From: Eledone cirrhosa | Taxonomy: Eukaryota | Direction: 5' to 3' | Assembly: GCA_964016885.1 (NCBI GenBank) | Contig: OZ024741.1 | Span: forward strand, 147,746,001-147,810,000 | DNA: 64,000 bases | Position numbers and translations under genes: made by a program | Shown: positions 1 through 54,680 of the stretch, one piece after another | Layout: every line of letters starts with the position of its first letter | How positions within the stretch are numbered: position 1 is the first letter of the stretch | The notes under the pieces: model-generated | Seen by the model: the letters and a program-made list of their open reading frames with translations, nothing else | Told to the model about the DNA's origin: nothing | Databases searched by the model: none

Positions 1-174
1 CTCATATAACCAACAACCTTTTTTGTTTACTTTTGTTAAATTACATTCTAACCAAGTGTCGTTTACAAACGATATCTTTACATATTGCTTGCAAACATCT
101 CGGTTAAAGAACCAACAAATTCTACTACTTTATTCAATGTACGAGCTAGATATTCTATAATCGTCAAATATACT
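1..174 (-). repeat. Upstream inverted repeat of GPCR cassette 1 (runs off the window edge)
   Basis: Reverse complement of 2370-2543 (e.g. agctagatattctataatcgtcaaatatac vs gtatatttgacgattatagaatatctagct) and of 48341-48513. Confidence 0.9.
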
Positions 175-1069
175 CTCGTCTCACGCTACAGAAGCAAGGG
201 GCCCGGTTGCTCCAGTACCTAACAGCCCTCACCAACTGTCTCGTCCGCGCCAACTTGCCCTGCCATGCCCACGATCTTGTCTTCTCAGCCAGTCTGTCCG
301 CCGTAAGGAAGAATGACGGAGGTGTCCGAACGCATGGCGATGGGCAACGTCTTCCGACGACTTGCAAGTCAGTCAAAGAGGACCTGAGCGAGGTGCTAAA
401 CCCTGTCCAGCTCAGAGTGTGAATCAAGTGCGGATATGAGGCTGCAGTATTCCATAGGGCACGCGCCTCCTTCGTCATCCCACCTCCTTATGAAGCTGGA
501 CATGACATACGCTTTCAACAGCGTTCTTCCTCTTGAAGAACTGCTTCATCCTCCCCAGATTTATGTTCCCGCCGCACGGTTCACCTTGTCACCCCCATGC
601 AGATCTTCTCGGTGAACTCTACGCTCCATCCGATGCTGTGCAGAACTCATGTGCAATGTGAGTTTCGACAGTGCCGGCTGGCAACAGGCGAAGCTACCAG
701 CGAGGTACGGTGGCCTAGGCCTCAGACCCGCTTCGGATCTGGCTCTAGCGGCCTACCTTTCCTCAATCTCCTCCAGTAGCGTTCTCATCAGCGATGTCCT
801 CAGCATGACGGTCGAACATGACGTTGCCCGTCTGAGGAAAGAGTCCCGTGAGATGGGGTGGCTGTTGCAGCGGGTATCGCTGGCAATTGTCTGTGGAAAA
901 GGTCATGCGGTCTTTTCCGTTGGGCGCAGCTCCAACACCGCCACGCCCTAGACCCAGAGCCCATCCTCCTCCACTTCCCTCTCCCATTTTCTTTGACGCT
1001 AGAGCCCTTGCTTTTCCCTTCCTTTTCCGTTTTTAAATATTGATAAAGTTATTTTCACTGAAAAAAAAA
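175..1069 (+). mobile_element. Decayed CRE-clade-like non-LTR retrotransposon fragment (RT pieces, RLE-type C-terminus, A-rich end)
   Basis: Peptides ASLSAVRKNDGGVR..., LNPVQL.V.IKCGYEAAV, WQQAKLPARYGGLGL...LAAYLSS and WLLQRVSLAIVCG resemble CRE-type ORF motifs; A9 at 1061-1069. Confidence 0.7.
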
Positions 1070-1243
1070 GTAAAGATAATAATGTGTTAACTATATTGAC
1101 GTAATCTGCGAGAGTAATGCGTAAGATTTCAAATAGATTATTTCACTAAAAAGTTGATACACAGCGTTCTCTATTTGTGATTCAACCAGATATTTTCGAA
1201 GCTGCAAGAAGTAATATAAACATTTGGAGGAAAGAAAAAGATA

Positions 1244-2305
1244 ATGGATAACAAACAATATCCCATAGACTGTAATAACACTTTAGAGAAGTTAAGTTCT
1301 GAAATGGTGGATGTTATGTTTCCAGTAATAATGTATCTGACAATGATTATAGGGTTTGGATCAGTCGGAAATATCTTAGTATCTTATATATACTATTATA
1401 AATTTGAGAACACAGCTTCACATTTGTTGGTTGTAGCGCTTTCGATTTGCGATTTTCTTACTTGTATAATAAGCCTACCAATTGAAATTACGATTCTAAA
1501 TTTTCCATACACCTTTTACAGTGCTACTGCTTGCCGCCTCATGCGTTTTATTACTACTTCCACCGTAATCGCTTCATCATTGATTGTATTCATTATAGCA
1601 GTTGATAGATACTCACTTATCTGTCGACCTCTTCAAGTTCAATTTTCTCGTCAGAAGTCGAGGGAAATCATAGTATGTTTAATAATCACCGCCGCCATAT
1701 TAAGCCTGCCAAATGTTTATTTATACAACGCAGAACATCTCAACGTAAAAGACTGTGGAAATATTGGAAGAAAGTGTTCATTTACTGCGAAATTGAGTGG
1801 TACAATCTATCCTATAATCTATTATTGTGTATTGCTTCTTGTTTTTTTTGGTCTGTTTGTTTTTCTGGTGTTAATATATATAATGGTTGCAATACATATT
1901 TGGAGATTTTCCGCAAGAAATATGCTTAGACAGCAAGATGTAGAGCCAATTAAATATGCGCCCGAGATCCAAAATGAACCTTATAGTGGTACTGCTGGAG
2001 TTAATGTTGGTAAAAGACGATTAATGATTCCTCAAAAAAATATAACTTCTAGAACCAATATACTTTTGTTGACCATCATGTTCTTCTGGCTTCTGTGTTA
2101 TGTACCTCATCTATTCGGCCTAGCATACTGGAGGATGAACAAAATAGATTCCTTTGCCAACAAAAAACAAGGTGGAATTGTAATTTATAAGTTAACGATG
2201 TATTCTATTTACATTAATTGTGCTGTAAACCCATTCATTTATGGAGCTTTTAATACAAAGTTTCGTATTGAATTACAGAGTTTGCTTCGTCGATTTCATG
2301 AATAA
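1244..2305 (+). CDS. Intronless class A (rhodopsin-like) 7TM GPCR, peptide-receptor-like orphan, 353 aa
   Basis: Seven hydrophobic segments; GN in TM1, LSICD in TM2, Cys at top of TM3, AVDRY..IC, LSLP in TM4, CYVP in TM6, NCAVNPFIY in TM7, helix-8 KFR; ATG to TAA intact. Confidence 0.95.
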   Translation: MDNKQYPIDCNNTLEKLSSEMVDVMFPVIMYLTMIIGFGSVGNILVSYIYYYKFENTASHLLVVALSICDFLTCIISLPIEITILNFPYTFYSATACRLMRFITTSTVIASSLIVFIIAVDRYSLICRPLQVQFSRQKSREIIVCLIITAAILSLPNVYLYNAEHLNVKDCGNIGRKCSFTAKLSGTIYPIIYYCVLLLVFFGLFVFLVLIYIMVAIHIWRFSARNMLRQQDVEPIKYAPEIQNEPYSGTAGVNVGKRRLMIPQKNITSRTNILLLTIMFFWLLCYVPHLFGLAYWRMNKIDSFANKKQGGIVIYKLTMYSIYINCAVNPFIYGAFNTKFRIELQSLLRRFHE

Positions 2306-2369: not shown

Positions 2370-3032
2370 AGTATATTTGACGATTATAGAATATCTAGCT
2401 CGTACTTTGAATGAAATACTAAACTTTGATGGTTCTTTAACCAAGATATTTGCAAGCAATATGTAAAGGTATAGTTGGCAAACGACACTTGGTTAGAATG
2501 AACTTTAACAGAAGTAAGCAAAAATTGTTGTTGGTTATATGAGAGAATGTATGAATTACAAGTGAATTATGTAAGGATAGTCTTTGGAAAAATTATAGAA
2601 AGAAAGATTTGTGTATGAATGCGATGTGCGTGTTTTTTTGCTCGATTGGCTTTACCTGTAAAATCTCTCCTGTGATTATTTCCTTAAACTTTCTAACCAT
2701 ATTACCGAAATGGCAAATATCTTTTGGGTGGTTGCTTGCTTTCTGCATTTGTACAAAGTCTGCATTGGGTAATTCCCAGGATACGCTATATCTAACACGA
2801 GCAGGATAACATCAAACAAAAGGGGAGTAAATTTGCCACAAACAAACAAAACGTAAATATATACCCCCGTAAAATCGCACATTTTACACATATCTATCTT
2901 CACGAACACTCGGAATAAGGAGACAGTGCAACATATGCTAAGATACTAGAAAATGAAATCAAGATTGTAAAGTAATCTCTTCTGTGTGACAGAATGAAAT
3001 TTGCTTTTACTATGATTAAAAAAAAATGTAAT
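2370..3032 (+). repeat. Downstream inverted repeat of GPCR cassette 1
   Basis: Inverted relative to 1-174; aligns in direct orientation, with indels, to 48341-49299. Confidence 0.85.
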
Positions 3033-3034
3033 TG

Positions 3035-3420
3035 ATCGTCGCAAATTATTCGTTTTTTGTTGTTTCAATCGAAGAATTCCATCTTAGAGACAGTTGGGCG
3101 ATTTACGCCAAACTTGTTTTATTCAGAGTATTTTCTCATTATGCAATGTTTTGGCTATTTACGAAGTTTTGCGGGTTATGTTAATTTCGAGGTATTTTCC
3201 CAGTATGCACCGTTGTGGCTATTTACGAAGGTACCCCCAAAACCTGCGAGTCTCGGGAAACCGGGGTCAGATTTTCGCAAAACTTGTTTTATTCAATTTG
3301 TATTCCCATTTCAGAGTCAACTTGCTTTCAAAGTATTTACCCATTATGCGCCCTTTTGGCTGTATTACATAAAAGACAAGCAAGCAAGCACGCAAGATCA
3401 GAGTTTTAGTAGTTTATAGA
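3035..3420 (-). repeat. Internally repetitive element with a Helitron-like 5' end
   Basis: Minus strand starts TCTATAAACTACTAAAA then (GCTT)3; three copies of gtatttt.ccattatgc...tggctatttac and two of gattt.cgc.aaacttgttttattca. Confidence 0.35.
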
Positions 3421-3651
3421 TAGATAGATAGATAGATTTCTTTATTTACCATAAAGGCATAAAAAGAAGGGACAAATACAAAGGGGGAGTTTACATATAA
3501 TCGAGTAAAAAGGGTGTAACATGAAAATAATCGAAAATAACCTCAAAAGGGAGGGGACGTGATGGGGGTTGCACACACCCCCGAAAAAGTGTGCAATCCT
3601 TTGCCCGGGGAGCACATGGAGAAGGTGCTCCCCTCTCCTTTACTTCTTTAC

Positions 3652-6600
3652 CTACAGGATGGTATACAGAGAAGGCCCATTTACACGAGCCATTCTCGCC
3701 ACTATCACCCACCTTTCATAAAACTGCCTGTGGCCAAGCACCTCTCTCTCCATTCTTATCCTTCTTCCGAAGTGATATCGGAAGAAGTAGACCAGACTAT
3801 GGCCAGAGAGGAAGTTGCCTGACCTCAGACCTTTCAATCGTGTCCACCAAACAACCTCTTTCAACATGGCTATTACGCACAGAAAAACCGCCTTTGCTTC
3901 CTTTGTGAAGAGGGGAGGCGGTTTGATTGTCATCACGGACTCGGCGGTCAATTTAATCGGCGCCACCCGCGACAGCAGTTGTTCGGCGTAGCCCCACAGA
4001 TCAGCCACGCCCGGACATTGCACCAATGCGTGCGCCACGGTTTCTTCGTGACGCACGCATCTAGGGCAAATCTTTTTTGAGGGATCCCTGCCCGGGCGCC
4101 CGTGTCTGTAGAGCCTCTCTCGAACGGGTAGAGCCCCTCGGTAGCACTGCCAGGCCAGTGACTTCTGGAAGTTGTCCATTGGTCCTGGGCCGAAAGTCCT
4201 ACCGAACAGGCTGGCCAGTTCGTCTTCTTCCATGTCCAGCGACTCTCCAAGGGTGTCATCGCCCCTGCTAGCCACCAGCCCTCTATAGAATGATGAGGTG
4301 GATTCTCCACCGATGGCCCGGCCCGCTTGCCAGAGAGCCCTGAGCGCCTGAGCACACTCAGTGTGCCAGTCTCCCAGTTTTCCGGATCTTTGCTTGACCC
4401 AGGACTGTAGCTCGGTGAGTGAGACGAGTCTCGGAAAGGCTCGTTTCACGAACGGAGCCCACACCGGTTGACCAGTGAGGAATACCTGTAGGTGCCGTAG
4501 CCTTAATGCGTGCCTACGCATTATCAACCACGGCATCCCCAGCCCTCCTTTTGAAGGTTGTTGGCAGCAGATGGATCTTCTCACCATAGGAGGACGCTTC
4601 TTCCAAAGAAATTGGAAGAGCATGCGTTCCATGGTGGTGAGTGTTTCCTTAGGGCAAGGCACGACAGTCAGGCGGTAGTAAGTGACGGACGCTATGTAAA
4701 TGTTCGCCACCTCCGCCCGGCCTTTTAGGGACAGCTTACACTTGGCCCATTTCTGGGTTAGTGCAAACACCTTGTTCGTAACCTCGTTCCAGTTCTTTTC
4801 CACCTGGAGGTCCGGTCCAAACCAGACCCCAAGCAACTTTACCGGGCCCTCCGTCCAGTGTCCGACGACACCGTCAGGAGGCATCGGTCTGCCTCTCCAC
4901 GTTCCGAGTGGCAACCCGATGGATTTTTCCCGGTTCAGTTTCGCTCCTGACAACCTTTCGTACTCCTCCAGTAAGGTACCGATCGCCTCGATCTCCGAGT
5001 CGGTCGATACCATTACTGTTACGTCATCGGCGTAGGCCGACACCGCTTTGCTCAATCCTGGTTCCAGGGGGATACCCTGCAACAACTCCAACTTCCTCAG
5101 TAAAGGCTCGAGAGTCAATACGTACAGAAGGGAGGAGAGAGGGCACCCCTGTCGAATGGATCGTGTGATTTCGAACGGCTTCGAAAGGTAGCCGTTCACC
5201 TTGATCCTAGAACAGATGTGGTTGCTATGTAGGGCAGTGATCCAGCCTCTGAAAACAGGACCGAACCCAGCCGCCGCTAGCACCGCATCCAGGTAACCAT
5301 GGTCGACCCTATCGAAGGCCTTAGACTGATCCAAGTTGATCAGGGCCCCACCGAAGCCGGGTTTGTTGCCAACCCTCTCTATGATGTATCGCATGAGGTG
5401 GAGGTTATCGTGAATGGACCTGGATGGGATAGCACATGTCTGCGCATCTCCCACCAGGCCACCCACGACAAGCGCCAACCTCTTTGCTAACACCTTGGCC
5501 AAAATCTTTAACTCTGTGTTTAGCAGGGTTATGGGCCGAAAATTATTTATACTATCCCCCTTGTTCTCGTCCTTCCTCACCAGCGTGACTACGCCCTTGG
5601 CTACAGAACAAGGAATTCTCCCGTTCTGCTGCCAATTGCAGTAGACCGCTTCGAGGAGTTCGGAGAAGAAGACCGGCATTGCTAAATAAAGTTCGTAAGG
5701 TATACCATCGAGACCTGGAGATTTGCGTCTGCTGCATTGGCTCAGCGCATCTCCGATCTCATCAGCCGAGATTGGTCCCTCGCAGGACTCTGCCTCTTTG
5801 CTCGAGAGACGCGGCAGGCCGTCGAGGTATGGACCGAAATCCACGCCCCGGCCCGGACCCTCGCCTCCCCCGAACAATCGGGCAAAGTGCTTTTGAAAGG
5901 CCTCGCACATCTGCTTAGGCTCCCGGATCACTCGTCCATCTTCGTCTTGCAACGACCGGATGGTGGATCGATTTCCACTTTTAGCTTCTGTCACGCGGGC
6001 CCATCCAACGGCTTTGGCCCCCTCATTACCTAGAGCACGTATTTTACTTCGAATGACGCAGCCTTCATGCTTTGCATCGAAAAACTGGTTCAAGGCCGTC
6101 CTCGATGCCAGCACTCTGGCCACATCTTCGCTCTTGATTGCCTCTTCTAATTTACCTGTTAATTCTTTCTCGTTTCTATTCCTACCGGCAGCTAACATCT
6201 TGCTATAACTTATTGATTCTGTTCTAATCTCTCTTTTGAGAGATGCCCACCATCGGTTGTTGACGATTGCACCCGTCAACCTCTCCTTAACTAATCTGCT
6301 AATCCGGTTTCTGTAAGTCTCTTTTGCCGGTAAAGACAAATTAAGTTTCCAGTAACCGGGACCCTGTCTATGTGTTTTCTCGAGATTGACCACGCAGGTC
6401 ACTAATTTGTGATCCGTGTAGCCAACTGTGCGCATTTCTGGACAGCTTAATATGTCCCTATCCTTACTTCTAACTAAGAATCTATCTAAGTACGATCTAG
6501 ATTGACCACTGTGGTTTCTCCAAGTCCAGGTAGGCACAGTTGGAAAATCTAGTCGATATCTATCGACCAAGTTAAAACGGTCGAGTAACCCCTTGAGGCT

Positions 6601-7089
6601 GTTACACCCCCCTCTATTAGGACATGCTCCTGCATAGTCCCAACGTGCATCTAGGATGTCATTCCAATCCCCCGCTAGAAGCAGGGAACGCGACGTTCCC
6701 AGAAAAGTCTCCAAACGCTGGAAGAAGTCGGGCCGTTCAGCTCCGAAAGGGGAGTAGACAGCGACCAGTCTCAAGGCCGCACTTTCACTACTGCCAACGT
6801 CTAGCACCAACAAACGACCCTCCGGGTCCGAGTGCACAACCTGTACGGCAAGACCCAGGTGTTTTTGCAGCAGCACGACAACCCCACCCCCACCTCCAGG
6901 TTGACAGAGAGATGCATGCACCTCAAAGTCATCGAAGGTGGGGGCCAGCTGCCGCATGACGCTGATTCGAGTCTCACAGATAACCATTACATTTATACTA
7001 CATGACCTGAGGTCATTTAGAAGCTTTGCTTGCTTCCAAGTTGAGCCCAGGCCACGTGCATTCAAACATCCTACTCTTAACACATCCAT
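3652..7089 (-). CDS. LINE ORF2: APE endonuclease + reverse transcriptase + C-terminal zinc finger, 1145 aa
   Basis: LNARGL, CET, AGDWN, YLDRF, TDH (APE); KSPGLDG, FRPITLLN, DQSKAFDRV, RQGCPLS, YADD (RT); CPRC...ETVAHALVQC. Confidence 0.97.
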   Translation of the reverse strand: MDVLRVGCLNARGLGSTWKQAKLLNDLRSCSINVMVICETRISVMRQLAPTFDDFEVHASLCQPGGGGGVVVLLQKHLGLAVQVVHSDPEGRLLVLDVGSSESAALRLVAVYSPFGAERPDFFQRLETFLGTSRSLLLAGDWNDILDARWDYAGACPNRGGCNSLKGLLDRFNLVDRYRLDFPTVPTWTWRNHSGQSRSYLDRFLVRSKDRDILSCPEMRTVGYTDHKLVTCVVNLEKTHRQGPGYWKLNLSLPAKETYRNRISRLVKERLTGAIVNNRWWASLKREIRTESISYSKMLAAGRNRNEKELTGKLEEAIKSEDVARVLASRTALNQFFDAKHEGCVIRSKIRALGNEGAKAVGWARVTEAKSGNRSTIRSLQDEDGRVIREPKQMCEAFQKHFARLFGGGEGPGRGVDFGPYLDGLPRLSSKEAESCEGPISADEIGDALSQCSRRKSPGLDGIPYELYLAMPVFFSELLEAVYCNWQQNGRIPCSVAKGVVTLVRKDENKGDSINNFRPITLLNTELKILAKVLAKRLALVVGGLVGDAQTCAIPSRSIHDNLHLMRYIIERVGNKPGFGGALINLDQSKAFDRVDHGYLDAVLAAAGFGPVFRGWITALHSNHICSRIKVNGYLSKPFEITRSIRQGCPLSSLLYVLTLEPLLRKLELLQGIPLEPGLSKAVSAYADDVTVMVSTDSEIEAIGTLLEEYERLSGAKLNREKSIGLPLGTWRGRPMPPDGVVGHWTEGPVKLLGVWFGPDLQVEKNWNEVTNKVFALTQKWAKCKLSLKGRAEVANIYIASVTYYRLTVVPCPKETLTTMERMLFQFLWKKRPPMVRRSICCQQPSKGGLGMPWLIMRRHALRLRHLQVFLTGQPVWAPFVKRAFPRLVSLTELQSWVKQRSGKLGDWHTECAQALRALWQAGRAIGGESTSSFYRGLVASRGDDTLGESLDMEEDELASLFGRTFGPGPMDNFQKSLAWQCYRGALPVRERLYRHGRPGRDPSKKICPRCVRHEETVAHALVQCPGVADLWGYAEQLLSRVAPIKLTAESVMTIKPPPLFTKEAKAVFLCVIAMLKEVVWWTRLKGLRSGNFLSGHSLVYFFRYHFGRRIRMEREVLGHRQFYERWVIVARMARVNGPSLYTIL

Positions 7090-7122
7090 GTGGGCGGCAG
7101 AGCCAAAGGAGAGTGTAGAGAC

Positions 7123-9001
7123 CTACCTTTCCGCTTCCCGGGGTTCGGGTTGCACGACTTCCATGGGGTCGGGGGTGTTGGGTGAAGGGGTGTCTTGTGG
7201 TGGTGTGGGGTCGTCGGTGTGTGGTGGGGTTGGGGTGTTTGGAGTTGTGTTGGGGAGGGGAAGGGGAGGGGGAAAGCTTTTTAGTAGGACGCGGTTTATG
7301 GGTTTGACAGAGGGTGGTCCTACGTCCTCCTTAAAATCCTTTTTTAGTTTTTGGTAGAGGTTCATTGGGATTTTTATTAGTTTTAAATGTGGGTGGTTTT
7401 CTGATGAAACAAAGTTTACACCTTCGGTTTGTACCGAAGGATTATTGTATATGAGTTCATTTAATTTATTATTGTTTCTGTTGATGTAAGTATAGTGTAA
7501 TGTCTTTTTTTCCGATGGTGTGAGTGTTTCGAAGAGGGGAGGGGCAGGTTTGGTTTTGTTTGTTGCTGGAGGGGTGTTTTCTGTTTTGTTAGATTGTGTT
7601 GCGATTTGGGTGGGGGTTGTTTGTCCTTGTGTGTTTTGCACATGTTTTCTTTTTTTCCTTTTAATCTGTCTGAAGGACTCCGTTTCTTCCTCCGAATTCG
7701 TTGGGTTATCTTCAGTGTTGGAGGGAAGAGGTATGTTTGCTGGTAATGTTTCCGTGTTGGTTTTCTTTGTGGGGGAGATGGATGTCACTATGTTAGACTG
7801 TGTTGTGTGTTGTGTCTGCGGTGGTTGTGTTGTTTTATTGAGTGAGAGGTTGGGTGGGCCTGTATTTTGTTTTGGGGTAATGTGTTGTGACTGTTTGTGT
7901 TGTGGTGGTGTTGTGGTGTTACTGAGGGACGGGTTGGGTGGGACTGAGTTTTGTTGTTTGTTTATCTGTTGTGGTGGTGGTGGTGGAGCTGGTGTTGGTA
8001 GCAGGGTTTTCTTTTTGTTGAGTTGGGGACAAGCGGCCTTCAGGTGCCCTCTGCCTGCACAGATATGGCAGGACGGCCTTCTCCCCTCCACGCTAATGTT
8101 TATATACCCGTGGTCCTCTAATAGGATTCTGTCGGGTATTTGGGCGATGCGTTCAGGCTTCATTTGTACTACCAGCTCTATACCTGTTCCACTGAACGCA
8201 TTGCCTGTGGTTTTCCCAATGGAAATCACGTTGTCATTTACTGGATCGATGAAGCCAGCTATGAGCCAGCAGTAGTCCACATCTGGCATCATTGCATCCA
8301 GCCATATGCGTTGAGTTTTTTTTCCCATATAAGATGGATAAAAGGTGAAATTTTTCGAACGAATCGGTGACAAAGCACATTTTTTTTGCCGCCGATTCGT
8401 TCTTCATGATAATTGCTAGGCTTCCATACAGTCTGTCTTTTCTTATGAAAGTTGTTTCATTCAGTACTTCTGCGAGTACTGTTTTGATATCTGCTTGAGA
8501 AGGCTGTTCAGGTTTTTTTGTACTGTTGTTGATGGTCCGAAACTTGACCGTTCGGCTTTCAATGTCTTTCGTGAATTCTTGAGGCATTTTTACCAATAAA
8601 ATACCATTCTCACCTTCACTTATGTATTGTTTTGCGTCCGTGATCCTTCGTACCACATCTGAAATGTTTTCCGCTATATAAGTCAAAGATTTCTTTGTTT
8701 TCTGTGCAAATGAAATTTTGTCGTCTGCTTTGTTTTCTGATATGATGTTATTTTCAACTGTTATTTTTTTGTTTGTTGTGTCTTTGTTTGTGTTATTAGT
8801 ATTGTCATGCAATTTTTCAAATTTTTTTTTTCCGTTGTTTTCGTCATTTAATTTTTTTTCCGCAGATTCGTCCGTTTTTATTTTCATTTTTCCTTCCTTC
8901 TCTATGACGTTAGTTGGGAAGGAAGGGAGGACTAAAGCGTGCGAGCTTACAACTCTTACCGCTGTCCCCCCACCACTATTTTCGTTCGCTGCGTTTAACA
9001 T
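7123..9001 (-). CDS. LINE ORF1 (zinc knuckle), split by one frameshift near 8385
   Basis: ORFs 8234-9001 and 7123-8373 join if one A is removed from an A8 run (A7 in copy 2 reads AAKKYALSP); CHICAGRGHLKAAC knuckle. Confidence 0.85.
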
Positions 9002-9238
9002 TTCTGTTAGACGATTGAAATTTTTTACACAAAATTTTTTTTTAAAACAGGTTTTTCACCTCTAGGAGGGGTAAAGATGAGCTGACCCACCGCCTGACAG
9101 TTCAGACGGAGGGTCAAGCTACACAATTGTATCAAAATTAAGTTTGAACTCACAAAATTTCCTCAATAAATTTGAACAAAACTTCTGTGCGAAGTGAATG
9201 ACATCCACACTGTAGAACAGACGACAGCTAGATTATCA

Positions 9239-9316
<78 letters not shown>
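9239..9316. repeat. (GATA)n microsatellite between Tx1 copies 1 and 2
   Basis: Direct reading; shorter tracts at 3416-3437 and 15138-15160. Confidence 0.98.
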
Positions 9317-12300
9317 TTCTTTATTTACCATAAAGGCATAAAAAGAAGGGACAAATACAAAGGGAGAGTTTACATAAAATCGAGTAAAAAGGGTATAAAA
9401 TGAAAATAATCGAAAACAACCGCAAAAGGGAGGGGACGTGATGGGGGTTGCACACACCCCCGAAAAAGTGTGCAATCCTTTGCCCAGGGAGCACATGGAG
9501 GAGGTGCTCCCCTCTCCTTCACTTCTTTACCTACAGGATGGTATACAGAGAAGGCCCATTTACACGAGCCATTCTCGCCACTATCACCCACCTTTCATAA
9601 AACTGCCTGTGGCCAAGCACCTCTCTCTCCATTCTTATCCTTCTTCCGAAGTGATATCGGAAGAGGTAGACCAGACTATGGCCATAGAGGAAGTTGCCTG
9701 ACCTCAGACCTTTCAATCGTGTCCACCAAACAACCTGTTTCAACATGGCTATTACGCACAGAAAAACCGCCTTTGCTTCCTTTGTGAAGAGGGGAGGCGG
9801 CTTGATTGTCATCACGGACTCGACGGTCAATCGAATCGGCGCCACCCGCGACAGCAGTCGTTCGGCGTAGCCCCACAGATCAGCCACGCCCGGACATCGC
9901 ACCAATGCGTGCGCAACGGTTTCTTCGTGACGCACGCATCTAGGGCAAATCTTTTTCGAGGGATCCCTGCCCGGGCGCCCGGGTCTGTAGAGCCTCTCTC
10001 GAACGGGTAGAGCTCCCCGGTAGCACTGCCAGGCTAGTGACTTCTGGAAGTTGTCCATTGGTCCCGGGCCGAAAGTCCTACCGAACAGGCTGGCCAGTTC
10101 GTCCTCTTCCATGTCCAGCGACTCTCCAAGGGTGTCATCGCCCCTGCTAGCCACCAGCCCTCTATAGAATGATGAGGCGGATTCTCCACCGATGGCCGGG
10201 CCCGCTTGCCAGAGAGCCCTGAGCGCCTGCGCACACTCAGTGTGCCAGTCTCCCAGTTTTCCGGATCTTTTCTTGACCCAGGACTGCAGCTCGGTGAGCG
10301 AGACGAGTCTCGGAAAGGCTCGTTTCACGAACGGAGCCCACACCGGTTGACCAGTGAGGAATACCTGTAGGTGCCGTAGCCTTAATGCGTGCCTACGCAT
10401 CATCAACCACGGCATCCCCAGCCCTCCTTTCGAAGGTTGTTGGCAGCAGATGGATCTTCTCACCATAGGAGGGCGCTTCTTCCAAAGAAATTGGAAGAGC
10501 ATGCGTTCCATGGTGGTGAGTGTTTCCTTAGGGCAAGGCACGACAGTCAGGCGGTAGTAAGTGACGGACGCTATGTAAATGTTCGCCACCTCCGCCCGAC
10601 CTTTTAGGGAAGCTTACACTTGGCCCATTTCTGGGTTTGTGCAAACACCTTGTTCGTAACCTCGTCCCAGTTCTTTTCCACCTGGAGGTCCGGTCCAAAC
10701 CAGACCCCAAGCAACTTCACTGGGCCCTCCGTCCAGTGTCCGACGACACCGTCGAGAGGCATCGGTCTGCCTCTCCACGTTCCGAGTTGCAGCCCGATGG
10801 ATTTTTCCCGGTTCAGTTTCGCTCCTGACAACCTTTCGTAATCCTCCAGTAAGGTACCGATCGCCTCGATCTCCGAGTCGGTCGATACCATTACTGTTAC
10901 GTCATCGGCGTAGGCCGACACCGCTTTGCTCAATCCTGGTTCCAGGAGGATACCCTGCAACAACTCCAACTTCCTCAGTAAAGGCTCGAGAGTCAATACG
11001 TACAGAAGGGAGGAGAGAGGGCACCCCTGTCGAATGGATCGTGTGATTTCGAACGGCTTCGAAAGGTAGCCGTTCACCTTGATCCTAGAACAGATGTGGT
11101 TGCTATGTAAGGCAGTGATCCAGCCTCTGAAAACAGGACCAAACCCAGCCGGCGCTAGCACCGCATCCAGGTAACCATGGTCGACCCTATCGAATGCCTT
11201 AGACTGATCCAAGTTGATCAGGGCCCCACCGAAGCCGGGTTTGTTGCCAACCCTCTCTATGATGTATCGCATGAGGTGGAGGTTATCGTGAATGGACCTG
11301 GATGGGATAGCACATGTCTGCGCATCTCCCACCAGGCCACCCACGACAAGCGCCAACCTCTTTGCTAACACCTTGGCCAAAATCTTTAACTCTGTGTTTA
11401 GCAGGGTTATGGGCCGAAAATTATTTATACTATCCCCCTTGTTCTCGTCCTTCCTCACCAGCGAGACTACGCCCTTGGCTACAGAACAAGGAATTCTCCC
11501 GTTCTGCTGCCAATTGCAGTAGACTGCTTCGAGGAGTTCTGAGAAGAAGACCGGCATTGCTAAATAAAGTTCGTAATGTATACCATCGAGACCTGGAGAT
11601 TTGCGTTTGCTGCATTGGCTCAGCGCATCCCCGATCTCATCAGCCGAGATTGGTCCCTCGCAGGACTCTGCCTCTTCGCTCGAGAGACGCGGCAGGCCGT
11701 CGAGGTATGGATCGAAATCCACGTCCCCGCCCGGACCCTCGCCTCCCCCGAATAATCGGGCAAAGTGCCTTTGAAAGGCCTCGCAAATCTGCTTAGGCTC
11801 CCGGATTACCCGTCCATCCTCGTCTTGCAAAGACCGGATGGTGGATCGATTTCCACTCTTCGCTTCTGTCACGCGGGCCCAGCCAACGGCTTTGGCCCCC
11901 TCATTACCTAGAGCACGTATTTTACTTCGAATGACGCAGCCTTCGTGCTTTGCATCGAAAAACTGGCTCAAGGCCGTCCTCGATGCCAGCACTCTGGCCA
12001 CATCTTCGCTCTTGGTTGCCTCTTCTAATTTACCTGTTAATTCTTTCTCGTTTCTATTCCTATCGGCAGCTAACATCTTACTATAACTTATTGATTCTGT
12101 TCTAATCTCTCTTTTGAGAGATGCCCACCATCGATTGTTGACGATTGCACCCGTTAACTTCTCCTTAACTAATCTGCTAATCCGGTTTCTGTAAGTCTCT
12201 TTTGCCGGTAAAGACAAATTAAGTTTCCAGTAACCGGGACCCTGTTTATGTGTTTTCTCAAGATTGACTATGCAGGTCACTAATTTGTGATCCGTATAGC

Positions 12301-15138
12301 CAACCGTGAGCATTTCTGGACAGCTTAATATGTCCCTATCCTTACTTCTAACTAAGAATCTATCTAAGTACGATCTAGATTGACCACTGTGGTTCGTCCA
12401 AGTCCAAGTTGGCACAGTTGGAAAATCTAGTCGATATCTACCGACCAAGTTAAAACGGTCGAGTAACCCCTTGAGGCTGTCACACCCCTCTCTATTAGGA
12501 CATGCTCCTGCATAGTCCCAACGTGCATCTAGGATGTCATTCCAATCCCCCGCTAGAAGCAGGGAACGCGACGTTCCCAGAAAAGTCTCCAGACGCTGGA
12601 AGAAGTCGGGTTGTTCAGCTCCGAAAGGGGAGTAGACGGCGACCAGTCTCAAGGCCGCACCTTCACTACTGTCAACGTCTAACACCAACAAACGACCCTC
12701 CGGTTCCGAGTGAACAACCTGTACGGCAAGACCCAGGGGTTTTTCCAGCAGTACGACAACCCCACCCCCACCTCCAGGTTGACAGAGAGATGCATGCACC
12801 TCAAAGTCATCGAAGGTAGGGGCCAGCTGCCGCACGACGCTGATCCGAGTCTCACAGATAATCATTACATTTATACCACGTGACCTGAGGTCATTTAGAA
12901 GCTTTGCTTGCTTCCAAGTTGAGCCCAGGCCACGTGCATTCAAACATCCTACTCTTAACACATCCATGTGGGCGTCAAAGCCAAAGGAGAGTGTAGAGAC
13001 CTACCTTTCTGCTTCCCGGGGTTCGGGTCGCACGACTTCCATGGGGTCGGGGGTGTTGGGTGAAGGGGTGTCTTGTGGTGTTGTGGGGTCGTCAGTGTGT
13101 GGTGGGATTGGGGTGTTTGGAGATGTGTTGGGGAGGGGAAGGGGAGGGGGAAAGCTTTTTAGTAGGACGCGGTTTATGGGTTTGACAGAGGGTGGTCCTA
13201 CGTCCTCCTTAAAATCCTTTTTTAGTTTTTGGTAGAGGTTCATTGGGATCTTTATTAATTTTAAATGTGGGTAGTTTTCTGAAGAAACAAAGTTTACACC
13301 TTCGGTTTGTACCGAAGGGTTATTGTTTATGAGTTCATTTAATTTGTTATTGTTTCTGTTGATGTAAGTATAGTGTAATGTCTTTTTTTCGGATGGTGTG
13401 AGTGTTTCGAAGAGGGGAGGGGCAGGTTTGGTTTTGTTTGTTGCTGGAGGGGTGTTTTCTGTTCTGTTGGATTGTGTTGACATTTGGGTAGGGGTTGTTT
13501 GGCCTTGTGTGTTTTGCACATGTTTTCTTTTTTTTTCTTTTAATCTGTCTGAAGGACTCCGTTTCTTCCTCCGAATTCGTTGGGTTATCAGTGTTGGAGG
13601 GAAGAGGTATGTTTGCTGGTAATGTTTCCGTGTTGGTTTTCTTTGTGGGGGAGATGGATGTCACTATGTTAGACTGTGTTGTGTGTTGTGGCTGCGGTGG
13701 TTGTGTTGTTTATTGAGTGAGGGGTTGGGTGGGACTGTGTTTTGTTTTGGGGTAATGTTTTGTGACTGTTTGTGTTGTGGTGGTGGTGTAGTTTTATTGA
13801 GGGACGGGTTGGGTGGGACTGAGTTTTGTTGTTTGTTTATCTGTTGTGGTGGTGGTGGAGCTGGTGTTGGTAGCAGGTTTTTCTTCTTGTTGAGTTGGGG
13901 ACAAGCCGCCTTCAGGTGCCCTCTGCCTGCACAGATAACAGGACGACCTTCTCCCCTCCACGCTAATGTTTATATACCCGTGGCCCTCTAATAGGATTCT
14001 GTCGGGTATTTGGGCAATGCGTTCAGGCTTCATTTGCACTACAAGTTCTATACCTGTTCCACTGAACGCATTGCCTGTGGTTTTCCCAATGGAAATCACG
14101 TTGTCATTCGCTGGATCGATGAAGCCAGCTATGAGCCAGAAGTAGTCCACATCTGGTATCATCGCATCCAGCCATATGCGCTGAGTTCTTTTACCCATAT
14201 AAGATGGATAAAGGGTAAAATTTGTCGAACGAATCGGCGACAAAGCATATTTTTTTGCCGCCGATTCGTTCTTCATAATAATCGCTAGGCTTCCATACAG
14301 TCTGTCTCTTCTTATGAAAGTGGTTTCATTAAGTACTTCTGTAAGTACTGCTTTGATTTCTGTTTGTGTTGGTTGTTGAGGTTTTTTAGAAATGTTGTTG
14401 ATGGTGCGGAAAACGACCGTCCGACTTTCAATGTCTTTGGTGAGTTCTTGAGGCATTTTTACCGATAAAATACCATTTTCCCCTTGAGTTATGTATTGTT
14501 TGGCGTTTTTAATTCTTTGTGCCACATCTGAAATATTTTCAGGTATATATGTCAAAGATTTCTTTGTTGTTTGTGCAAATGAAATATTATTGGTGTTGAC
14601 TTTGTCGTCTGCTTTGTTTTCTGTTATGATGTTGTTTTCAAATGTTATTTTTGTGTTTGTTTGTCTTTGTTTGTGGTATTAATATTGTCATGCAATTTTT
14701 CAAATTTTTTTTTGTTGTTGGAATCAATGTCCAGATTTGTGTTTTCGTCATTTTTCTCCGCACATTCGTCTGTTTTTATTTTATTTTTTCTTTCCTTCTC
14801 TATGACGTTAGTTGGGAAGGAAGGGGGGACTAAAGCGTGCGAGATTACAACTCTTACCACTGTCCCCCCCCCCCCACCACTATTTTCGTTAGCCTCGTTT
14901 AACATTTCTGTCAGACGATTGAAATTTTATGCCACAAAATTTTTAAAAACAGGTTTTTCACCCCTGGGTGGGGCGAAGATGAGCTGACCCACCGTCTGAC
15001 AGTTCAGACGGGGGGTCAAGCTACACAATAGTATCAAAATTAAAATTGAACTTACAAAATTTCCACAATAAATTGGAACAAAACATCTGCGCGAAGTGAA
15101 TTATATCTACGCTGTAGAACAGACGACAGCAGGATTTT
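9317..15138 (-). mobile_element. Tx1 subfamily A, copy 2 (full length, frameshifted)
   Basis: Highly similar to copy 1; ORF2 split at ~10607 (10604-12967 and 9531-10589); ORF1 in pieces over 13001-14905. Confidence 0.95.
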
Positions 15139-15160
15139 AGATAGATAGATAGATAGATAT

Positions 15161-16140
15161 ATTTCTTTATTTACCATAAAGGCATAAAAAGAAGGGACAA
15201 ATACAAAGGGGGATTTACATAAAACAGAATAAAAAGGGTATAAAATGAAAATAATCGAAAACAACCTCAAAAGGGAGGGGACGTGATGGGGGTTGCACAC
15301 ACCCCCGAAAAAGTGTGCAATCCTTTGCCCGGGGAGCACATGGAGAAGGTGCTCCCCTCTCCTTCACTTCTTTACCTACAAGATGGTATACAGAGAAGGC
15401 CCATTTACACGAGCCATTCTCGCCACTATCACCCACCTTTCATAAAACTGCCTGTGGCCAAGCACCTCTCTCTCCATTCTTATCCTTCTTCCGAAGTGAT
15501 TTCAGAAGAAGTAGACCAGACTATGGCCAGAGAGGAAGTTGCCTGACCTCAGACCTTTCAATCGTGTCCACCAAACAACCTCTTTCAACTAGGCTATTAC
15601 GCACAGAAAAACCGCCTTTGCTTCCTTTGTGAAGAGGGTAGGCGCCTTGATTGTCAACACGGACTCGGCGGTCAATCGAATCGTTGTCACCCGCGACAGC
15701 AGTCGTTCGGCGTAGCCCCACAGATCAGCCACGCCCGGACATTGCACCAATGCGTGCGCAACGGTTTCTTCGTGACGCACGCATCTAGGGCAAATCTTTT
15801 TCGAGGGATCCCTGCCCGGGCGCCCGTGTCTGTAGAGCCTCTCTCGAACGGGTAGAGCCCCCCGGTAGCACTGCCAGGCTAGTGAGTTCTGGAAGTTGTC
15901 CATTGGTCCCGGGCCGAAAGTCCTACCAAACAGGCTGGCCAGTTCGTCCTCTTCCATGTCCAGCGACTCTCCAAGGGTGTCATCGCCCCTGCTAGCCACC
16001 AGCCCTCTATAGAATGATGAGGTGGATTCTCCACCGATGGCCGGGCCCGCTTGCCAGAGAGCCTTGAGCGCCTGGGCACACTCACTGTGCCAGTCTCCCA
16101 GTTTTCCGGATCTTTGCTTGACCCAGGACTGCAGCTCGGA
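15161..16140 (-). mobile_element. Tx1 subfamily A, copy 3 (5'-truncated)
   Basis: Matches the 3' ~1 kb of copies 1 and 2; homology ends abruptly at ...gcagctcgga 16140. Confidence 0.93.
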
Positions 16141-16200
16141 AATATAAATTAGCGAGAATCGTAATTCCGCTTAGGAATAAACGAAAAACAACTTACGAGA

Positions 16201-16263: not shown

Positions 16264-16577
16264 ATTCTTTCACTTCAATTTATTAAATTTATTAAATTTA
16301 TAAATTAAGGAATTTATAAATTTCCGGTTGGTTGGTTGGTTCCACAACCAGACGATTATTCATATATTGTCAAAGTTCTTTTTGCTTCTTGTTTTGCTTC
16401 TATGCAATATTGCAGTCTGTACACATGTGTCAATTATACAACTATGTACACAGTATATAGTTTCTGCCTACTCCGTGCATATGGAACAAAGGCCTTATAT
16501 TCCATCAAGGCAAGAAATATATTGAATTAAATTTATTAACTGGTAAATATTGTAAAAGTGTTTCAATATATATATAA

Positions 16578-19535: not shown

Positions 19536-19739
19536 TGTTGTTGTTCCTATCCATTTGTTGTTGTGCTGATAAGCATTTTGGCATTGATACACTGGTTGGA
19601 TGCCCTTCCTAACACCAGCACCACTTTACAGCATGGACTGGGTGCTTTTAGTTGTGCTACCACCACTAGAGAGGGTGTCTTATTAGACTCAAGGATCCTC
19701 TCTACCCCTCCATTTTACAGTAGGAATAAGAGGGATCAG

Positions 19740-26045: not shown

Positions 26046-26123
<78 letters not shown>

Positions 26124-26163
26124 TTTTGCGAGGTTCTTGATATGAAATCGTGTGTCGAAACAA

Positions 26164-27897
26164 ATATTGTTATACTTGGGGAGGGTCATATTTGTGTAAT
26201 ATTGCCAGAATTAATAACAGAACACACTCTCGTTACGGAGGGCGATATCAATATAGTTATAAGAACATTCCCACTAGAGAGCACTAACAAGTTTGATTTA
26301 GAACGTAGCACAATGGAAAGCATCCAGCAGATAGCTAATTCCATACACCAGAGTATAACTGTAACTATCGACTACCCTTCCAAACACCCTAACAATAGAC
26401 TACCTGTATTAGACACGGAACTCTGGATTAACACTATAGACGAGAGAGCCCAAATTCTCCACTCACACTATGCTAAACCCATGGCCTCCAAATACCTTAT
26501 ACTCAAAAACTCAGTAATGTCCAGTAGTGCTAAGTTTAATATTCTGATCGCAGATTTGGTACGAGTGATGAAGAATGTGTCCAGCATGTGCGACCCAACA
26601 GAAATGGAAAGACACATCCAACACTTCATCAACCGCATGCAGTTCTCTGGCTACAACCAAAGAGACAGAGTCAGAGTATACGAAGGAGCCATGGAGAAGT
26701 ATAAGACCCTCATAGAACTGGACATGAAAGGTATTTGCCCATTATACAGGAGCAAATCATGGAATAGCTTAGATAGGGCTAGACATAAGATAGGGAAAGC
26801 CACCTCATGGTACGACAACCAGAGATACCAGAGTGTCATGTTTGTGGATGCTACCCCTGGAGGGAAATTAGCTAACCAGTGTAGAAAGGCCCTGAGAAAG
26901 ACCCACTTAAAGATTAAGGTGGTAGAAAAGCCAGGAACCACCATAAAATCCCTGATCAGCAAAACCTACCCTTTTAAGAAAACCCACTGTACTAATAGGA
27001 AATGTATCATATGTAAGGTAAATCGCCGGATAAACTGTAAAACTAGAAACGTAGTCTATAGCATAAGATGTACAGAGGGTACTTGCAGAAACATGACAAC
27101 AACATACATAGGCGAGACAGCTCGTAGCATAGGTGAAAGAATAGACCAACACTGGCGGGAACTAAAAGGACGAAAAAACGGTTCAGTACTATACGAACAT
27201 GTCAGACAACAACACGACAGTAACATAGACAACATAGAAATTAGAATAATATCTAAACATAGAAATGACCCAGCAGATAGGCAAATCAGAGAGGCCAATG
27301 AAATAGAACTTAGAAGGCCAAGACTAAACAGAAAGAATGAATGGAATAACAACACCACCCAAACAAACAACACTGACCTAAGAGAAGTATAAATAAATAA
27401 ATAGATAAATAAATAAATAAATACATACACAAGCACAATAACAACAAACACATATAAACACACACTGGTAAAGATAGAATACATTAACCAATACACAGTC
27501 ACCCAATCACGAACACACATCAAACAAAACACTATACACACATGCAAACGCATGCGCAAAGAAGACAAAATAAAATAAACAAATAAATAAATATATAAAC
27601 AGACTAAATAAAGATGGCGTAGAAAATACAATGCAACGGGAGGAAACAATAGCACCACTGGCGATGTTGCAGATGTGCAACGAAAGAACTTTGATAAACT
27701 ATATATATGTGTTTGTGTCTATATTGTATCTGTATTATTTTTTACCGTTGGTCAGTCAATGGAAACATTGAGGACCGAATAAATTAGATTACCGATATAA
27801 AAGACACAGAAGCGAAAACCAACCAAACAGTGAGTGTGTTCTGTTATTAATTCTGGCAATATTACACAAATATGACCCTCCCCAAGTATAACAATAT
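26164..27897 (+). mobile_element. Penelope-like element 1, 5'-truncated (RT C-terminal half + GIY-YIG) with inverted terminal copy
   Basis: [18 protein letters not shown], Cys-rich linker, VVYSIRC...[11 protein letters not shown]; 66-bp inverted repeat 26164-26229 / 27832-27897; (TA)n nearby on both sides. Confidence 0.9.
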
Positions 27898-36250: not shown

Positions 36251-36379
36251 ACATTTTTTTGTGTAAACAGCAATAACACTAACCATGTTAGGGATGCGCA
36301 CGGTAGTGGGGTGGCTGGTGAGGCCATGTGCGAGAACCCCTGCCCGTGATCAAGCAATCGCACAAAAGGAAAAAGAACA

Positions 36380-39300: not shown

Positions 39301-39458
39301 CCAGGAAAAACATGGGCGGAGGTGGTGAGAACAGACCTCAGATCACTGAAGCTCACGGTGGAGATGACGAAGGACCGTGACAAATAGAGAGATGCTGTGC
39401 TGAATAAGACCCGTCCCACTCTTGCAAGCAGGGAAGAGCGGACGTAAAATGATGATGA
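36380..39458 (+). mobile_element. RTE-clade LINE, decayed; inverted duplicate of 16578-19535
   Basis: Same motifs, same premature stop after CTQCIS, and same ~190-bp 3' flank (39459-39645 vs 16391-16577). Confidence 0.95.
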
Positions 39459-45652: not shown

Positions 45653-45685
45653 ATCTATCTATCGATCTATCTATCTATATATATA

Positions 45686-45864
45686 ATTCACTTGTAATTC
45701 ATACATTCTCTCATATAACCAACAACCTTTTTTGCTTACTTTTGTTAAATTACATTCTAACGATATCTTTACATATTGCTTGCAAACATCTCGGTTAAAG
45801 AACCAACAAAGTTTACTACTTTATTCAATATATGAGCTAGATATTCTATAATCGTCAAATATAC
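45686..45864 (-). repeat. Downstream inverted repeat of GPCR cassette 2 (truncated)
   Basis: Reverse complement of 48341-48530 and of 2370-2570. Confidence 0.9.
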
Positions 45865-45932
45865 TTTGGTGAGATCTATAGAGTTAAGAATTCCGTACTT
45901 TTGTATCTATTTTCAAGAAACTCAATATTTTA

Positions 45933-47270
45933 TTAATGATATCGATGAAACAAATTCTGTAATTCAAATCGAAACCTCGTATTAAAAGCTCCATAAATGA
46001 ATGGGTTTACAGCAGAATTAAAGTAAATAGAATACAGCATGAACCTATAAATTACAATTCCATTTGGTGCTCTGGTGAACAAGTGCTCTGTTCTTTTAAC
46101 CTCCAGTATCCTAGGCCGAATAGATGAGGTACATAAGTCAGAATCCAAAGGAAAGTGATGGTGAACAAAAGTATATTGGTTCTAGGAGTCTTAATTTTTT
46201 TTGGATGAGCCGTTAATCGTCTCTTACCAACATTAGCTCCAGAAGTACCACTAGAAGGTTCTTTTGGCATATGGGACGCATATTTGACTGGCTCTCCCTC
46301 TTGGCGTCTATGCCCTTTTCTTGCGGAAAATCTCCAAATATGTATTGCAACCATTATATAAACTACCCGCCGAGGTTGACTTTGCCTTTCATCCTTACGG
46401 GGGTCGATAAAATAAAGTACCGGTAATGCACTGGGGTAATTGCTGGCCTTGTGCCTAAAGTAGAAACAATTATATAAACTACCATCGGACGCCATGCTTT
46501 CCAGCATAGTTACGTCCCTTTACGATCTGAGTTCAAATCCCGCCGAGGTTGACTTTTCCTTTCATCCTTACGGGGTCGATAAAATAAAGTACCAGTAATG
46601 CACTGGGTAATTGCTGGCCTTGTGCCTAAAGTAGAAACAATTATATAAACTACCATCAGAAAAACAAACAGAGAACCAGAAACAATAAGCAATACACCAT
46701 AATAGATTATAGGATAGATTGTACCACCCAATTTCGAAGAAAATGAACACTCTCTTCCAATATCTCCACAGTCTTTTACGTTGAGATGTTCTGCGTTGTA
46801 TATATAAACTGTTGGCAGGCCTAATATGGCGGAGATGATTATTAAAGTTACTATGACTTCTTACGAGAAAATCGAACTTGAAGAGGTCGACAGATAAGTG
46901 AGTATCTATCAACTGCTATAATGAATACAATCAATGATGAAGTGACTATGGTTATAACAGTAGTAAAACGCATGATGCGGCAAGCAGTAGCACTGTAAAA
47001 GGTGTATGGAAAATTTAGAATGATAAGTTCAATTGGTATGCTTATTATACAAGTAAGAAAATCGCTCATCGAAAGCGCTACAATGAACAAATTTGTGGCT
47101 GTATTCTCAAATTTATAATAGTATATATAAGATACTAACATATTTCCGACTGATCCAAACCCCATAATCATTGTCAGATACAGCATTACTGGAAACACAA
47201 CATTCACCATTTCAGTATTTAACTCCTCTAAAGTGTCATTACAGTCTTTGGAATAATGTTTGTTATCCAT
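45933..47270 (-). pseudogene. Class A GPCR pseudogene, paralog of 1244-2305
   Basis: Colinear homology over the whole length; 10-bp deletion at ~46855, SINE insertion 46368-46640, 1-bp frameshift at ~46095. Confidence 0.95.
46368..46640 (+). mobile_element. Two tandem truncated SINEs inside the GPCR pseudogene
   Basis: Two copies of ccgccgaggttgacttt.cctttcatcc...gtagaaacaat; target attatataaactacc present three times (46353, 46469, 46640). Confidence 0.9.
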
Positions 47271-47444: not shown

Positions 47445-48340
47445 TTTTTTTTTCAGTGAAAATAACTTTATCAATATTTAAAAACGGAAAAGGAAGGGAA
47501 GAGCAAGGGCTCTAGGGTCAAAGAAAATGGGAGAGGTAAGTGGAGGAGGATGGGCTCTGGGTCTAGGGCGTGGCGGTGTTGGAGCTGCGCCCAACGGAAA
47601 AGACCGCATGACCTTTTCCACAGACAATTGCCAGCGATACACGCTGCAACAGCCACCCCATCTCACGGGACTCTTTCCTCAGACGGGCAACGTCATGTTC
47701 GACCGTCATGCTGAGGACATCGCTGACGAGAACGCTACTGGAGAAGATTGAGGAAAGGTAGGCCGCTAGAGCCAGATCCGAAGCGGGTCTGAGGCCGAGG
47801 CCACCGAACCTCGCTGGTAGCTTCGCCTGTTGCCAGCCGGCACTGTCGAAACTCACATTGCACATGAGTTCTGCACAGCATCGGATGGGGCGTAGAGTTC
47901 ACCGAGAAGATCTGCATGGGGGTGACAAGATGCACCGCGCGGCGGGAACATAAATTTGGGGAGGGTAAAGCAGTTCTTCAAGAGGAGGAACGCTGTTGAA
48001 AGCGTATGTCGTGTCCAGCTTCATAAGGAGGTGGGATGACGAAGGAGGCGCGTGCCCTATGGAATACTGCAGCCTCATATCCGCACTTGATTCCCACTCT
48101 GAGCTGGACAGGGTTTAGCACCTCGCTCAGGTCCTCTTTGACTGACTTGCAAGTCGTCGGAAGACGTTGCCCATCGCCATGCGTTCGGACACCTCCGTCA
48201 TTCTTCCTTACGGCGGACAGACTGGCCGAGAAGACAAGATCGTGAGCATGGCAGGGCAGGTTGGCGCGGACGAGACAGTTGGTGAGGGCTGTTAGGTACT
48301 GGAGCAATCGGGCCCCTTGCTTCTGTAGCGAGAGACGAGA
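47445..48340 (-). mobile_element. CRE-like fragment, inverted duplicate of 175-1069
   Basis: Near-identical reverse complement with the same junctions. Confidence 0.85.
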
Positions 48341-49299
48341 GTATATTTGACGATTATAGAATATCTAGCTCGTACATTGAATAAAGTAGTAAACTTTGTT
48401 GGTTCTTTAACCGAGATGTTTGCAAGCAATATGTAAAGATATCGTTTGTAAACGACACTTAGTTAGAATGTAATTTAACAAAAGTAAGCAAAAAAGGTTG
48501 TTGGTTATATGAGAGAATGTATGAATTACAAGGGATTTATGTAAGGATAGTCTTCGGAAAAATTATAGAAAGAAAGAGTTGTGTATGAATGCGATGTGCG
48601 TGTTTTGTTCGTGTGTATGAATGCGATGTGCGTGTGTTTTGTTTGTGTGTATGGATGCGATGTGCTTGTGTTTTATTCGTGTGTATGGATGCAAGACTAC
48701 CGGAGGTTACGGATGTTATCCTACCACCCTGCTTTACCCGTAAATTTCTCCTGTGATTATGTCCTTAAACTTTCTAACCACATTACCCAATGGCAAATAC
48801 CCTATGGATGGTTGCTTGCTTTCTGCATTTGTACAAAGTCTATACTGGCTAATTCCCAGGATACGCTATATCTAACATGAGCAGAATAACATCAAACAAA
48901 AGGCAGTAAACTTGTCACAAACAAACAAAACGTAAATATATACCCGTAAAATCTCAGGTTTTTCACACATCTATCTCGACGAACACTCGGAAGAAGGAGA
49001 CAATGCAACATATGCTAAGATACTAGAAAATGAAATCAACAATGTGAAGTAGTCTCTTCTGTAGGAATGAGAGCTATTTCTCATCACATACATAGCCAGA
49101 AATTTACTACGGGTTGTAGTAAATTCTATTAAAAATATGTATCTAATATGATGAAGCAATAAAGAAGTTTTGATTTATTTTTCTAATGAAGAAAAAATTG
49201 GTTCGGTACAATGTTATTTTAACACTTGTCATGTTGATAGGTTTTGTTAGAATTTTGAAGGTGAAATTTGCTTTTACTATGATTTAAAAAAATGTAATT
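48341..49299 (+). repeat. Upstream inverted repeat of GPCR cassette 2
   Basis: Homologous to 2370-3032; includes 3-4 tandem copies of gtgtatgaatgcgatgtgcgtg. Confidence 0.85.

Positions 49300-54645: not shown

Positions 54646-54680
<35 letters not shown>

Follow-up and report, generated by a model that had tools for sequence, protein, structure and literature searches.

Strong adaptive divergence between inverted copies of a receptor gene from a testis-biased cephalopod GPCR family in Eledone cirrhosa

The closest described relatives of the receptor genes analysed here form group 2 of Ritschard 2019 (PMC6408891). In the parts of that paper available to us, groups 1 and 2 are placed among molluscan neuropeptide receptors, group 2 is testis-dominated with a role in testis stated as unknown, and omega exceeds 1 on some branches of groups 1-3, although individual selected sites were not found. 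Another comparable system is provided by the lophotrochozoan chemoreceptor expansions, which in the accessible text of PMC11886862 are class A receptors arranged in tandem and evolving by birth and death with pseudogenes. The pair of genes described here (copies A and B) resembles these expansions in all three respects. However, the chemoreceptor expansions, which are sparse in cephalopods, do not possess the TM3-ECL2 disulfide, whereas the family of A and B keeps the cysteines and is testis-biased where measured. In our literature search, which covered few subscription journals, the work of Ritschard was the sole study of this family found.

Rapid change is also a hallmark of gamete-recognition proteins such as abalone lysin. 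Like A and B, these proteins show gene-wide dN/dS well above 1, diffuse replacement and a link to reproduction, the last being inferred here for the receptors. They are binding proteins rather than GPCRs, and A and B are compared as paralogs. In two-spot octopuses a Juno-like gene has a dN/dS of 1.69, and the median between sister octopus species is 0.283; the words GPCR and G-protein are absent from the main text of that paper (PMC13669787). A sperm-attracting peptide of cuttlefish eggs is cited in the accessible part of PMC4500399, and the same literature search, with its few subscription journals, found no receptor for it.

The window analysed here is the whole 64,000-nucleotide stretch of E. 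cirrhosa contig OZ024741.1 (positions 147,746,001 to 147,810,000, assembly GCA_964016885.1), and all coordinates refer to it. The two genes lie 44 kb apart:

1244..2305, plus strand: copy A, a class A GPCR with one uninterrupted open reading frame of 353 amino acids.
45933..47270, minus strand: copy B, an inverted pseudogene paralog of A that aligns with A over the whole length.
46353..46654, no strand assigned: a double SINE-like insertion in copy B, in which three copies of a 15-nt target duplication enclose two truncated pieces (156 and 101 nt).
1409-1417, 2012-2014 and 2255-2266: the purely silent differences between A and B (codons 56, 58, 257, 338 and 341).

The surroundings of these genes are rich in repeats, with about 54% of the window in hand-drawn retroelement blocks. 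Three tandem L1/Tx1-like elements, 95-97% alike, occupy the minus strand at 3416-16170; each ends at a (GATA)n tract, and microsatellite targeting by these elements is possible. The first of them retains an intact endonuclease-reverse transcriptase frame of 1156 amino acids. An inverted pair of reverse transcriptase-bearing elements (16390-19548 and 36367-39646) is 93-97% alike and presumably RTE-like. Two further repeats are nearly identical, namely an inverted duplication of at least 3.2 kb (52465-55689 and 60788-64000, 99.2%) and a direct repeat of 368 nt (55909-56276 and 57642-58009, 100%), each representing either a very recent duplication or an assembly artefact. The broken reading frames at 22372-24676 are, we assume, relics of a DNA transposase, and those at 26100-27400, 30283-31787 and 44184-45281 are taken to be Penelope-like reverse transcriptase and GIY-YIG-type relics; Pfam searches with two pieces of the former and two frames of the latter gave no match. 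LINE enrichment marks the cephalopod Z chromosome according to the accessible text of PMC10925132, but one window cannot indicate linkage.

Copy A matches the full 7tm_1 profile (E 2e-28), and its predicted structure comprises seven transmembrane (TM) helices and helix 8 (mean pLDDT 79). Both copies carry the class A motifs N1.50 (N43), D2.50 (D70), DRY (D121-R122-Y123), P6.50 (P288) and NPxxY (N329-P330-Y333), as well as C3.25 (C97) and the ECL2 cysteine C178, which are invariant in 20 of 20 aligned proteins. The first-pass annotation, made from the sequence alone, had reported that DRY, NPxxY and the TM prolines are kept. This holds for both motifs and for the four TM prolines common to A and B (79, 156, 288 and 330), but not for the remaining landmarks: at positions that are identical in the two copies, W4.50 is replaced by I147, W6.48 by Y286, and TM5 is prolineless and so has no P5.50 (numbering from our own anchoring; these residues are common in class A, not universal). 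The nearest solved structures, CCK-A and orexin receptors (TM-score about 0.7), share with copy A the 7TM fold with a beta-hairpin ECL2, DRY, NPxxY and the TM3-ECL2 cysteines; they differ from it in overall sequence (about 16-22% identity in the fold search) and in the three residues missing from A. The modelled fold is that of peptide receptors, and copy A is a peptide-type class A GPCR with ligand-dependent G-protein signalling as a candidate function.

In a tree of 21 proteins, with no group-1 proteins knowingly included, A and B together are sister (support 99/95) to a clade of 13 proteins that includes Octopus, with Argonauta outside. Their stem is long (0.79) and may hide a shift or misplace the pair. 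All close relatives of copy A come from Octopus and Argonauta, as would be expected of an octopod sequence; A and B are 33-41% identical to the Octopus sister proteins, the protein collection searched contained nothing closer to copy A than 48% identity, and a short-fragment search gave none at E ≤ 0.001 among 518 candidates. The database names of the relatives vary (vasotocin, orexin, CCK, RYamide, mesotocin), and therefore none of them shows orthology or ligand. In the Atlas, the matches of copy A begin with molluscan CCK-receptor-like clusters, and a chemosensory cluster appears at rank 12. Orthology to CCK, orexin or vasotocin receptors was rejected, because the oyster gastrin/CCK receptor is a far weaker match (24% identity, 40 bits) than the Octopus family (167-276 bits).

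Six of the six O. bimaculoides proteins in the sister clade are listed as group 2 in the supplement of PMC6408891; HXV7 is absent from its table. In the same source, the testis share of expression is 0.997 for HTN7, 0.9999 for HZ00, 0.964 for HIJ1 and 0.997 for HIH6, and 0 for HTP1 and FRL7, whose reads come from retina, sucker and skin and which make up a single nested subclade in our tree. Group-2 neighbours on the same scaffolds are testis-specific (HTK0, HTN0 and HXR3) or expressed broadly or in the embryo (HTH5 and HXU1), again according to the accessible part of PMC6408891. The Eledone pair thus resembles group 2 in phylogenetic placement, local paralog clusters and peptide-receptor ancestry, but forms a lineage of its own at the distance given above, and its inverted-repeat structure and pseudogenes have no counterpart in the account of PMC6408891, as far as that text was accessible.

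A codon alignment of A and B leaves 347 of 354 codons for comparison, the seven others being the stop codon and six codons affected by alignment gaps. Among them 106 differ, 101 by a replaced residue and five in a purely silent way. The distribution described in the first-pass annotation was recovered exactly for codons 1-138 (31 replacement and two silent differences, the latter at codons 56 and 58) and for the codons up to the SINE (19 and none, over codons 143-211), and the roughly three further silent changes it placed toward the C-terminus are those at codons 257, 338 and 341. Its overall ratio of about 25:1 was too high, since we obtained 20:1 by codon and about 10:1 by path-averaged nucleotide steps (116.7 replacement to 11.3 silent). 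Differences at codon positions 1, 2 and 3 number 54, 44 and 30; two-fold sites carry 17.5 transversions against 5 transitions, the opposite of the usual pattern; and divergence is 14.7% at 0-fold sites, 5.0% at 4-fold sites and 2.4% in the 5' flank. Constraint is nevertheless still visible, as 42 of the 47 columns that are at least 90% conserved among relatives are unchanged in the pair and the activation motifs are common to both copies. Slightly more than half of the replacements (56/101) do not leave the broad class of the residue replaced.

The maximum-likelihood dN/dS between A and B was 3.97-4.73 across six codon frequency models (dN 0.17, dS 0.04), with a profile interval of about 2-10 and likelihood ratio tests against 1 giving p values of 1.3e-5 to 3e-7. 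The ratio remains above 1 after correction for codon usage and base composition, reaching 4.4-4.7 under a free GTR mutation matrix, and 9000 neutral simulations (3 x 3000) yielded 23-28 silent codons on average and never fewer than nine, compared with the five observed. Several technical or mechanistic causes were rejected. Misalignment near indels does not account for the signal, which survives the removal of 34 codons (dN/dS 3.15-3.92, p<0.001), and base composition is no better candidate (GC3 0.29, with the four bases changing at similar rates in the flank). An overlapping reading frame conflicts with the counts by codon position and with most single third-position changes being replacements, and an A-to-I edited retrocopy with A/G differences making up only 35 of 128 and with genomic flanks common to both copies. 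We consider positive selection on the receptor pair highly probable, the evidence being a single pairwise comparison in which one partner was dead for part of the time. With dN/dS at 4.0-4.7, the results support the earlier proposal that strong diversifying selection has acted on a family of orphan receptors evolving by birth and death.

The changes are spread over the whole protein, affecting 12 of 15 residues in ECL3, 21 of 48 in ICL3, 9 of 26 in the N-terminus and 46 of 189 in all TM helices. When fitted apart, the TM and extracellular codons gave a dN/dS of 14.6 (lower confidence bound 4.2) at a neutral distance of 0.012, with 72 replacements and no purely silent difference among 264 codons; the intracellular codons gave 1.55, which is not significant, at a neutral distance of 0.136. 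All five silent codons are intracellular (5/54 against 0/192 same-residue codons elsewhere, p 4e-4), a split that was chosen post hoc and is equalled by 3 of 353 label rotations. This clustering fits imported older tracts or selective conversion. Enrichment in the ligand pocket, defined by a list of positions that we take to be canonical, was absent (8/38 pocket against 38/153 other positions, p 0.68); two alternative TM5 registers gave 9/38, and none of the three registers was significant. The unenriched pocket counts against a simple ligand-tracking story.

Copy B bears four lesions: a 10-nt deletion at 46857/46856 (A codons 139-142), a 287-nt insert of two related SINE-like pieces, an in-frame gain of 3 nt near 46202 in ICL3 and a 1-nt loss near 46100, close to codon 298. 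It was likely killed later by the two frameshifts and the double SINE insertion. The inserted sequence matches a repeat at 60057-60317 with 85% identity; its two pieces and the three copies of one target duplication are compatible with a double insertion or with a template jump at a single site. The pieces differ by two substitutions and two single-base indels over about 100 nt, which weakly suggests that B has spent much of the period after the split as a dead gene. The first-pass annotation placed the selection before the death of one copy. This is only partly right, since the living copy A seems, from the sequence comparisons, to hold the larger share of change: its tree branch is longer (0.29 against 0.11 for B) and each of the 19 outgroup proteins compared (which are non-independent) lies nearer to B than to A, although a count of site polarity (27 against 19, with 55 sites of no clear polarity) is not decisive on the asymmetry.

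Our preferred explanation, held with moderate confidence, is a reproductive receptor of testis or sperm under positive selection. In this reading, the inverted duplication of a block made of the gene and its upstream retroelement relic would date back a few million years, or about 2-11 My should the O. bimaculoides-O. sinensis clock hold here. The receptor would likely be made in testis or on sperm, and the driver would be male-reproductive selection, through competition among sperm or through conflict between males and females over a peptide cue coming from the female tract or the egg. Selection may have fixed roughly 85-90 replacements beyond the neutral prediction, of which the TM and extracellular parts would have taken most and A probably more than B; the flanks and short tracts would have been reshuffled by conversion among copies, and copy B would have died after these changes. 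A reproductive rather than a smell or taste receptor is likely because the nearest studied relatives are mostly testis-specific, an expression pattern carried over from proteins 33-41% identical and across a stem of 0.79. Two of the six sister relatives, those expressed in retina, sucker and skin, and the broad or embryonic HTH5 and HXU1 speak against this reading, and so do the unenriched pocket and the 56 replacements that keep the broad residue class. Rapid evolution of the family appears to extend to other species: in three presumed ortholog pairs of O. bimaculoides and O. sinensis, 16-26% of residues differ, or roughly dN 0.08-0.15 (a rough scaling from protein difference, with orthology assumed), compared with a mean autosomal dS of 0.123 in the accessible text of PMC10925132.

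Selection could also have come from an antagonist unrelated to a reproductive cue, such as a parasite, virus or toxin that binds the surface of the receptor, or a selfish element in the germline of the testis. Change across the whole protein rather than in the pocket, with 12/15 residues of ECL3 and 9/26 of the N-terminus replaced, agrees with this idea, as do inverted duplicates with conversion between their arms, an arrangement that recalls ampliconic conflict genes. Many of the changes occupy membrane-embedded positions, which speaks against such a driver, and we consider it unlikely. A little less likely still is the view toward which the first-pass annotation leaned, in which diversifying selection acts on a receptor that serves chemosensation or pheromone detection in suckers, skin or olfactory organ. 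The expression of HTP1 and FRL7 in retina, sucker and skin, the birth-and-death pattern and the fast extracellular parts would suit it, but these two proteins are one nested subclade of an otherwise testis-specific set. The slant is not favoured by the testis-biased relatives, by their derivation from neuropeptide receptors (PMC6408891, as far as accessible), by the invariant C97 and C178, unlike in the lophotrochozoan expansions (PMC11886862, likewise), or by the unenriched pocket.

The flanks of the two genes bear on whether selection is needed at all. The elements concerned are the following:

175..1033, plus strand: a truncated, frameshifted non-LTR retroelement relic upstream of A, identified from translations.
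47481..48339, minus strand: the matching relic upstream of B, different at 20 of 770 positions over the part compared.
1188..1243, plus strand: a likely 3' splice acceptor and 5' UTR piece of A, with AG at 1188-1189 (AA in B).
1..174, no strand assigned: the left arm of an inverted repeat in unit A, reverse complement of the 3' flank at 2370-2543, extending past the window.
2370..3033, no strand assigned: the 3' flank of unit A, or right arm, which differs by about 10% from the remaining three arms in the part compared.
48340..49299, no strand assigned: the upstream arm of unit B, with inverted homology to the 3' flank.
45680..45929, minus strand: the 3' flank of unit B, or second arm, ended by an (AT)n tract.

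The relic upstream of A has reverse transcriptase-like motifs that we take to be CRE-type, a label for which Pfam gave no match and the Atlas a weak one; its 3' part is a high-copy repeat, judged by contig depth and loose ends. The AG lies 54 nt before the ATG and is likely, from its sequence, the splice acceptor. Near-identity of the relic and the proximal 3' flank, as described in the first-pass annotation, is borne out by 28 differences in 1187 nt (1-1187) and 1 in 95 (2306-2400), but not by the stretches adjoining them, 1188-1243 (6/56, which looks older than the flank upstream) and 2401-2570 (16/152). Inverted repeats enclose each gene unit, since the sequence on the far side of the relic is the unit's own 3' flank in reverse complement. 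Three of the four arms are within 1-3% of each other and the right arm of A is 10-11% off. The layout resembles what the deletion of a head-to-head partner gene beside the retroelement relic would leave; in O. bimaculoides, the testis-specific group-2 genes HTN7 and HTK0 stand head to head, 68 bp apart. The mosaic of flank divergence, the differing arms and the clustering of silent changes indicate that conversion probably acted, and it may inflate the ratio.

It could accordingly be argued that the copies are older (about 10-12%) and under relaxed constraint, with conversion or silent-site constraint having erased their silent differences and no positive selection involved. Tracts with about 10% divergence do exist (1188-1243, 2401-2570 and the intracellular codons at 0.136), the arms show conversion, the silent codons are all intracellular, and B has three coding indels while the 1243 nt of 5' flank have none. 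Against the old 3' tract alone, 0-fold sites are not significantly more diverged (14.7% compared with 10.5%, p 0.20). However, only with the help of selection could conversion spare the sites of replacement: the runs of fewer than eight codons between replaced codons contain 97 identical codons, and these show no silent difference where 8.1 would be expected at 11% (P 0.0003). Tying the coding clock to the older, ~10% tracts still leaves a dN/dS of 2.2 (p 7e-5). Conversion alone thus cannot yield the pattern, base composition offers no explanation, and an origin without positive selection is improbable and already largely refuted.

Assembled sequencing contigs bear on the reality of both copies. 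A contig identical to A over 1891-2243 (0 differences) was present in 3 of 3 runs of one sample, possibly the source of the assembly and hence not independent of it. Another, with 61 differences and 4 gap letters from A over 1891-2228, fits B, for which 60 and 4 were computed. Further contigs fit neither copy (83 differences over 1381-1922 ungapped; 21 and 25 with a shortened ICL3; 40 over 1565-1769), which implies that the matches listed include at least three additional paralogs or alleles with about 80-86% identity. That A and B represent alleles of one gene or an artefact of assembly, as high flank identity and the lack, among the matches listed, of a contig spanning the 44 kb between them might suggest, is very improbable, given that A, and B with its 1-nt loss, lie on separate contigs (with sequencing error excluded if the runs are short-read data), that the outer flanks differ in insertions and that at least three more relatives exist, and even alleles would give omega above 1, through balancing selection.

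The family and some selection on it have already been published, and dN/dS of this strength was not met in the literature searched. The accessible text of PMC6408891 contains no case like the present one, with 101 replacements and a gene-wide dN/dS of 4; its branch values are given in Dryad files and Figure 3, and a similar value may therefore already be on record. Copies A and B add a new member to a testis-biased, functionally unexplained receptor family of cephalopods, and their adaptive divergence is unusually strong. About 100 replacements have accumulated on a silent distance of 0.02-0.04, a signal much sharper than is usual for GPCRs. As a bolder and rather doubtful extension of the reproductive explanation, the group-2 testis GPCRs might be the missing cephalopod sperm receptors for female- or egg-derived peptides, evolving with lysin-like speed, duplication, conversion and death, and by remodelling of the whole protein rather than tuning of the pocket. 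Copy A and its paralogs are candidates for sperm-female signalling and reproductive isolation in octopods.
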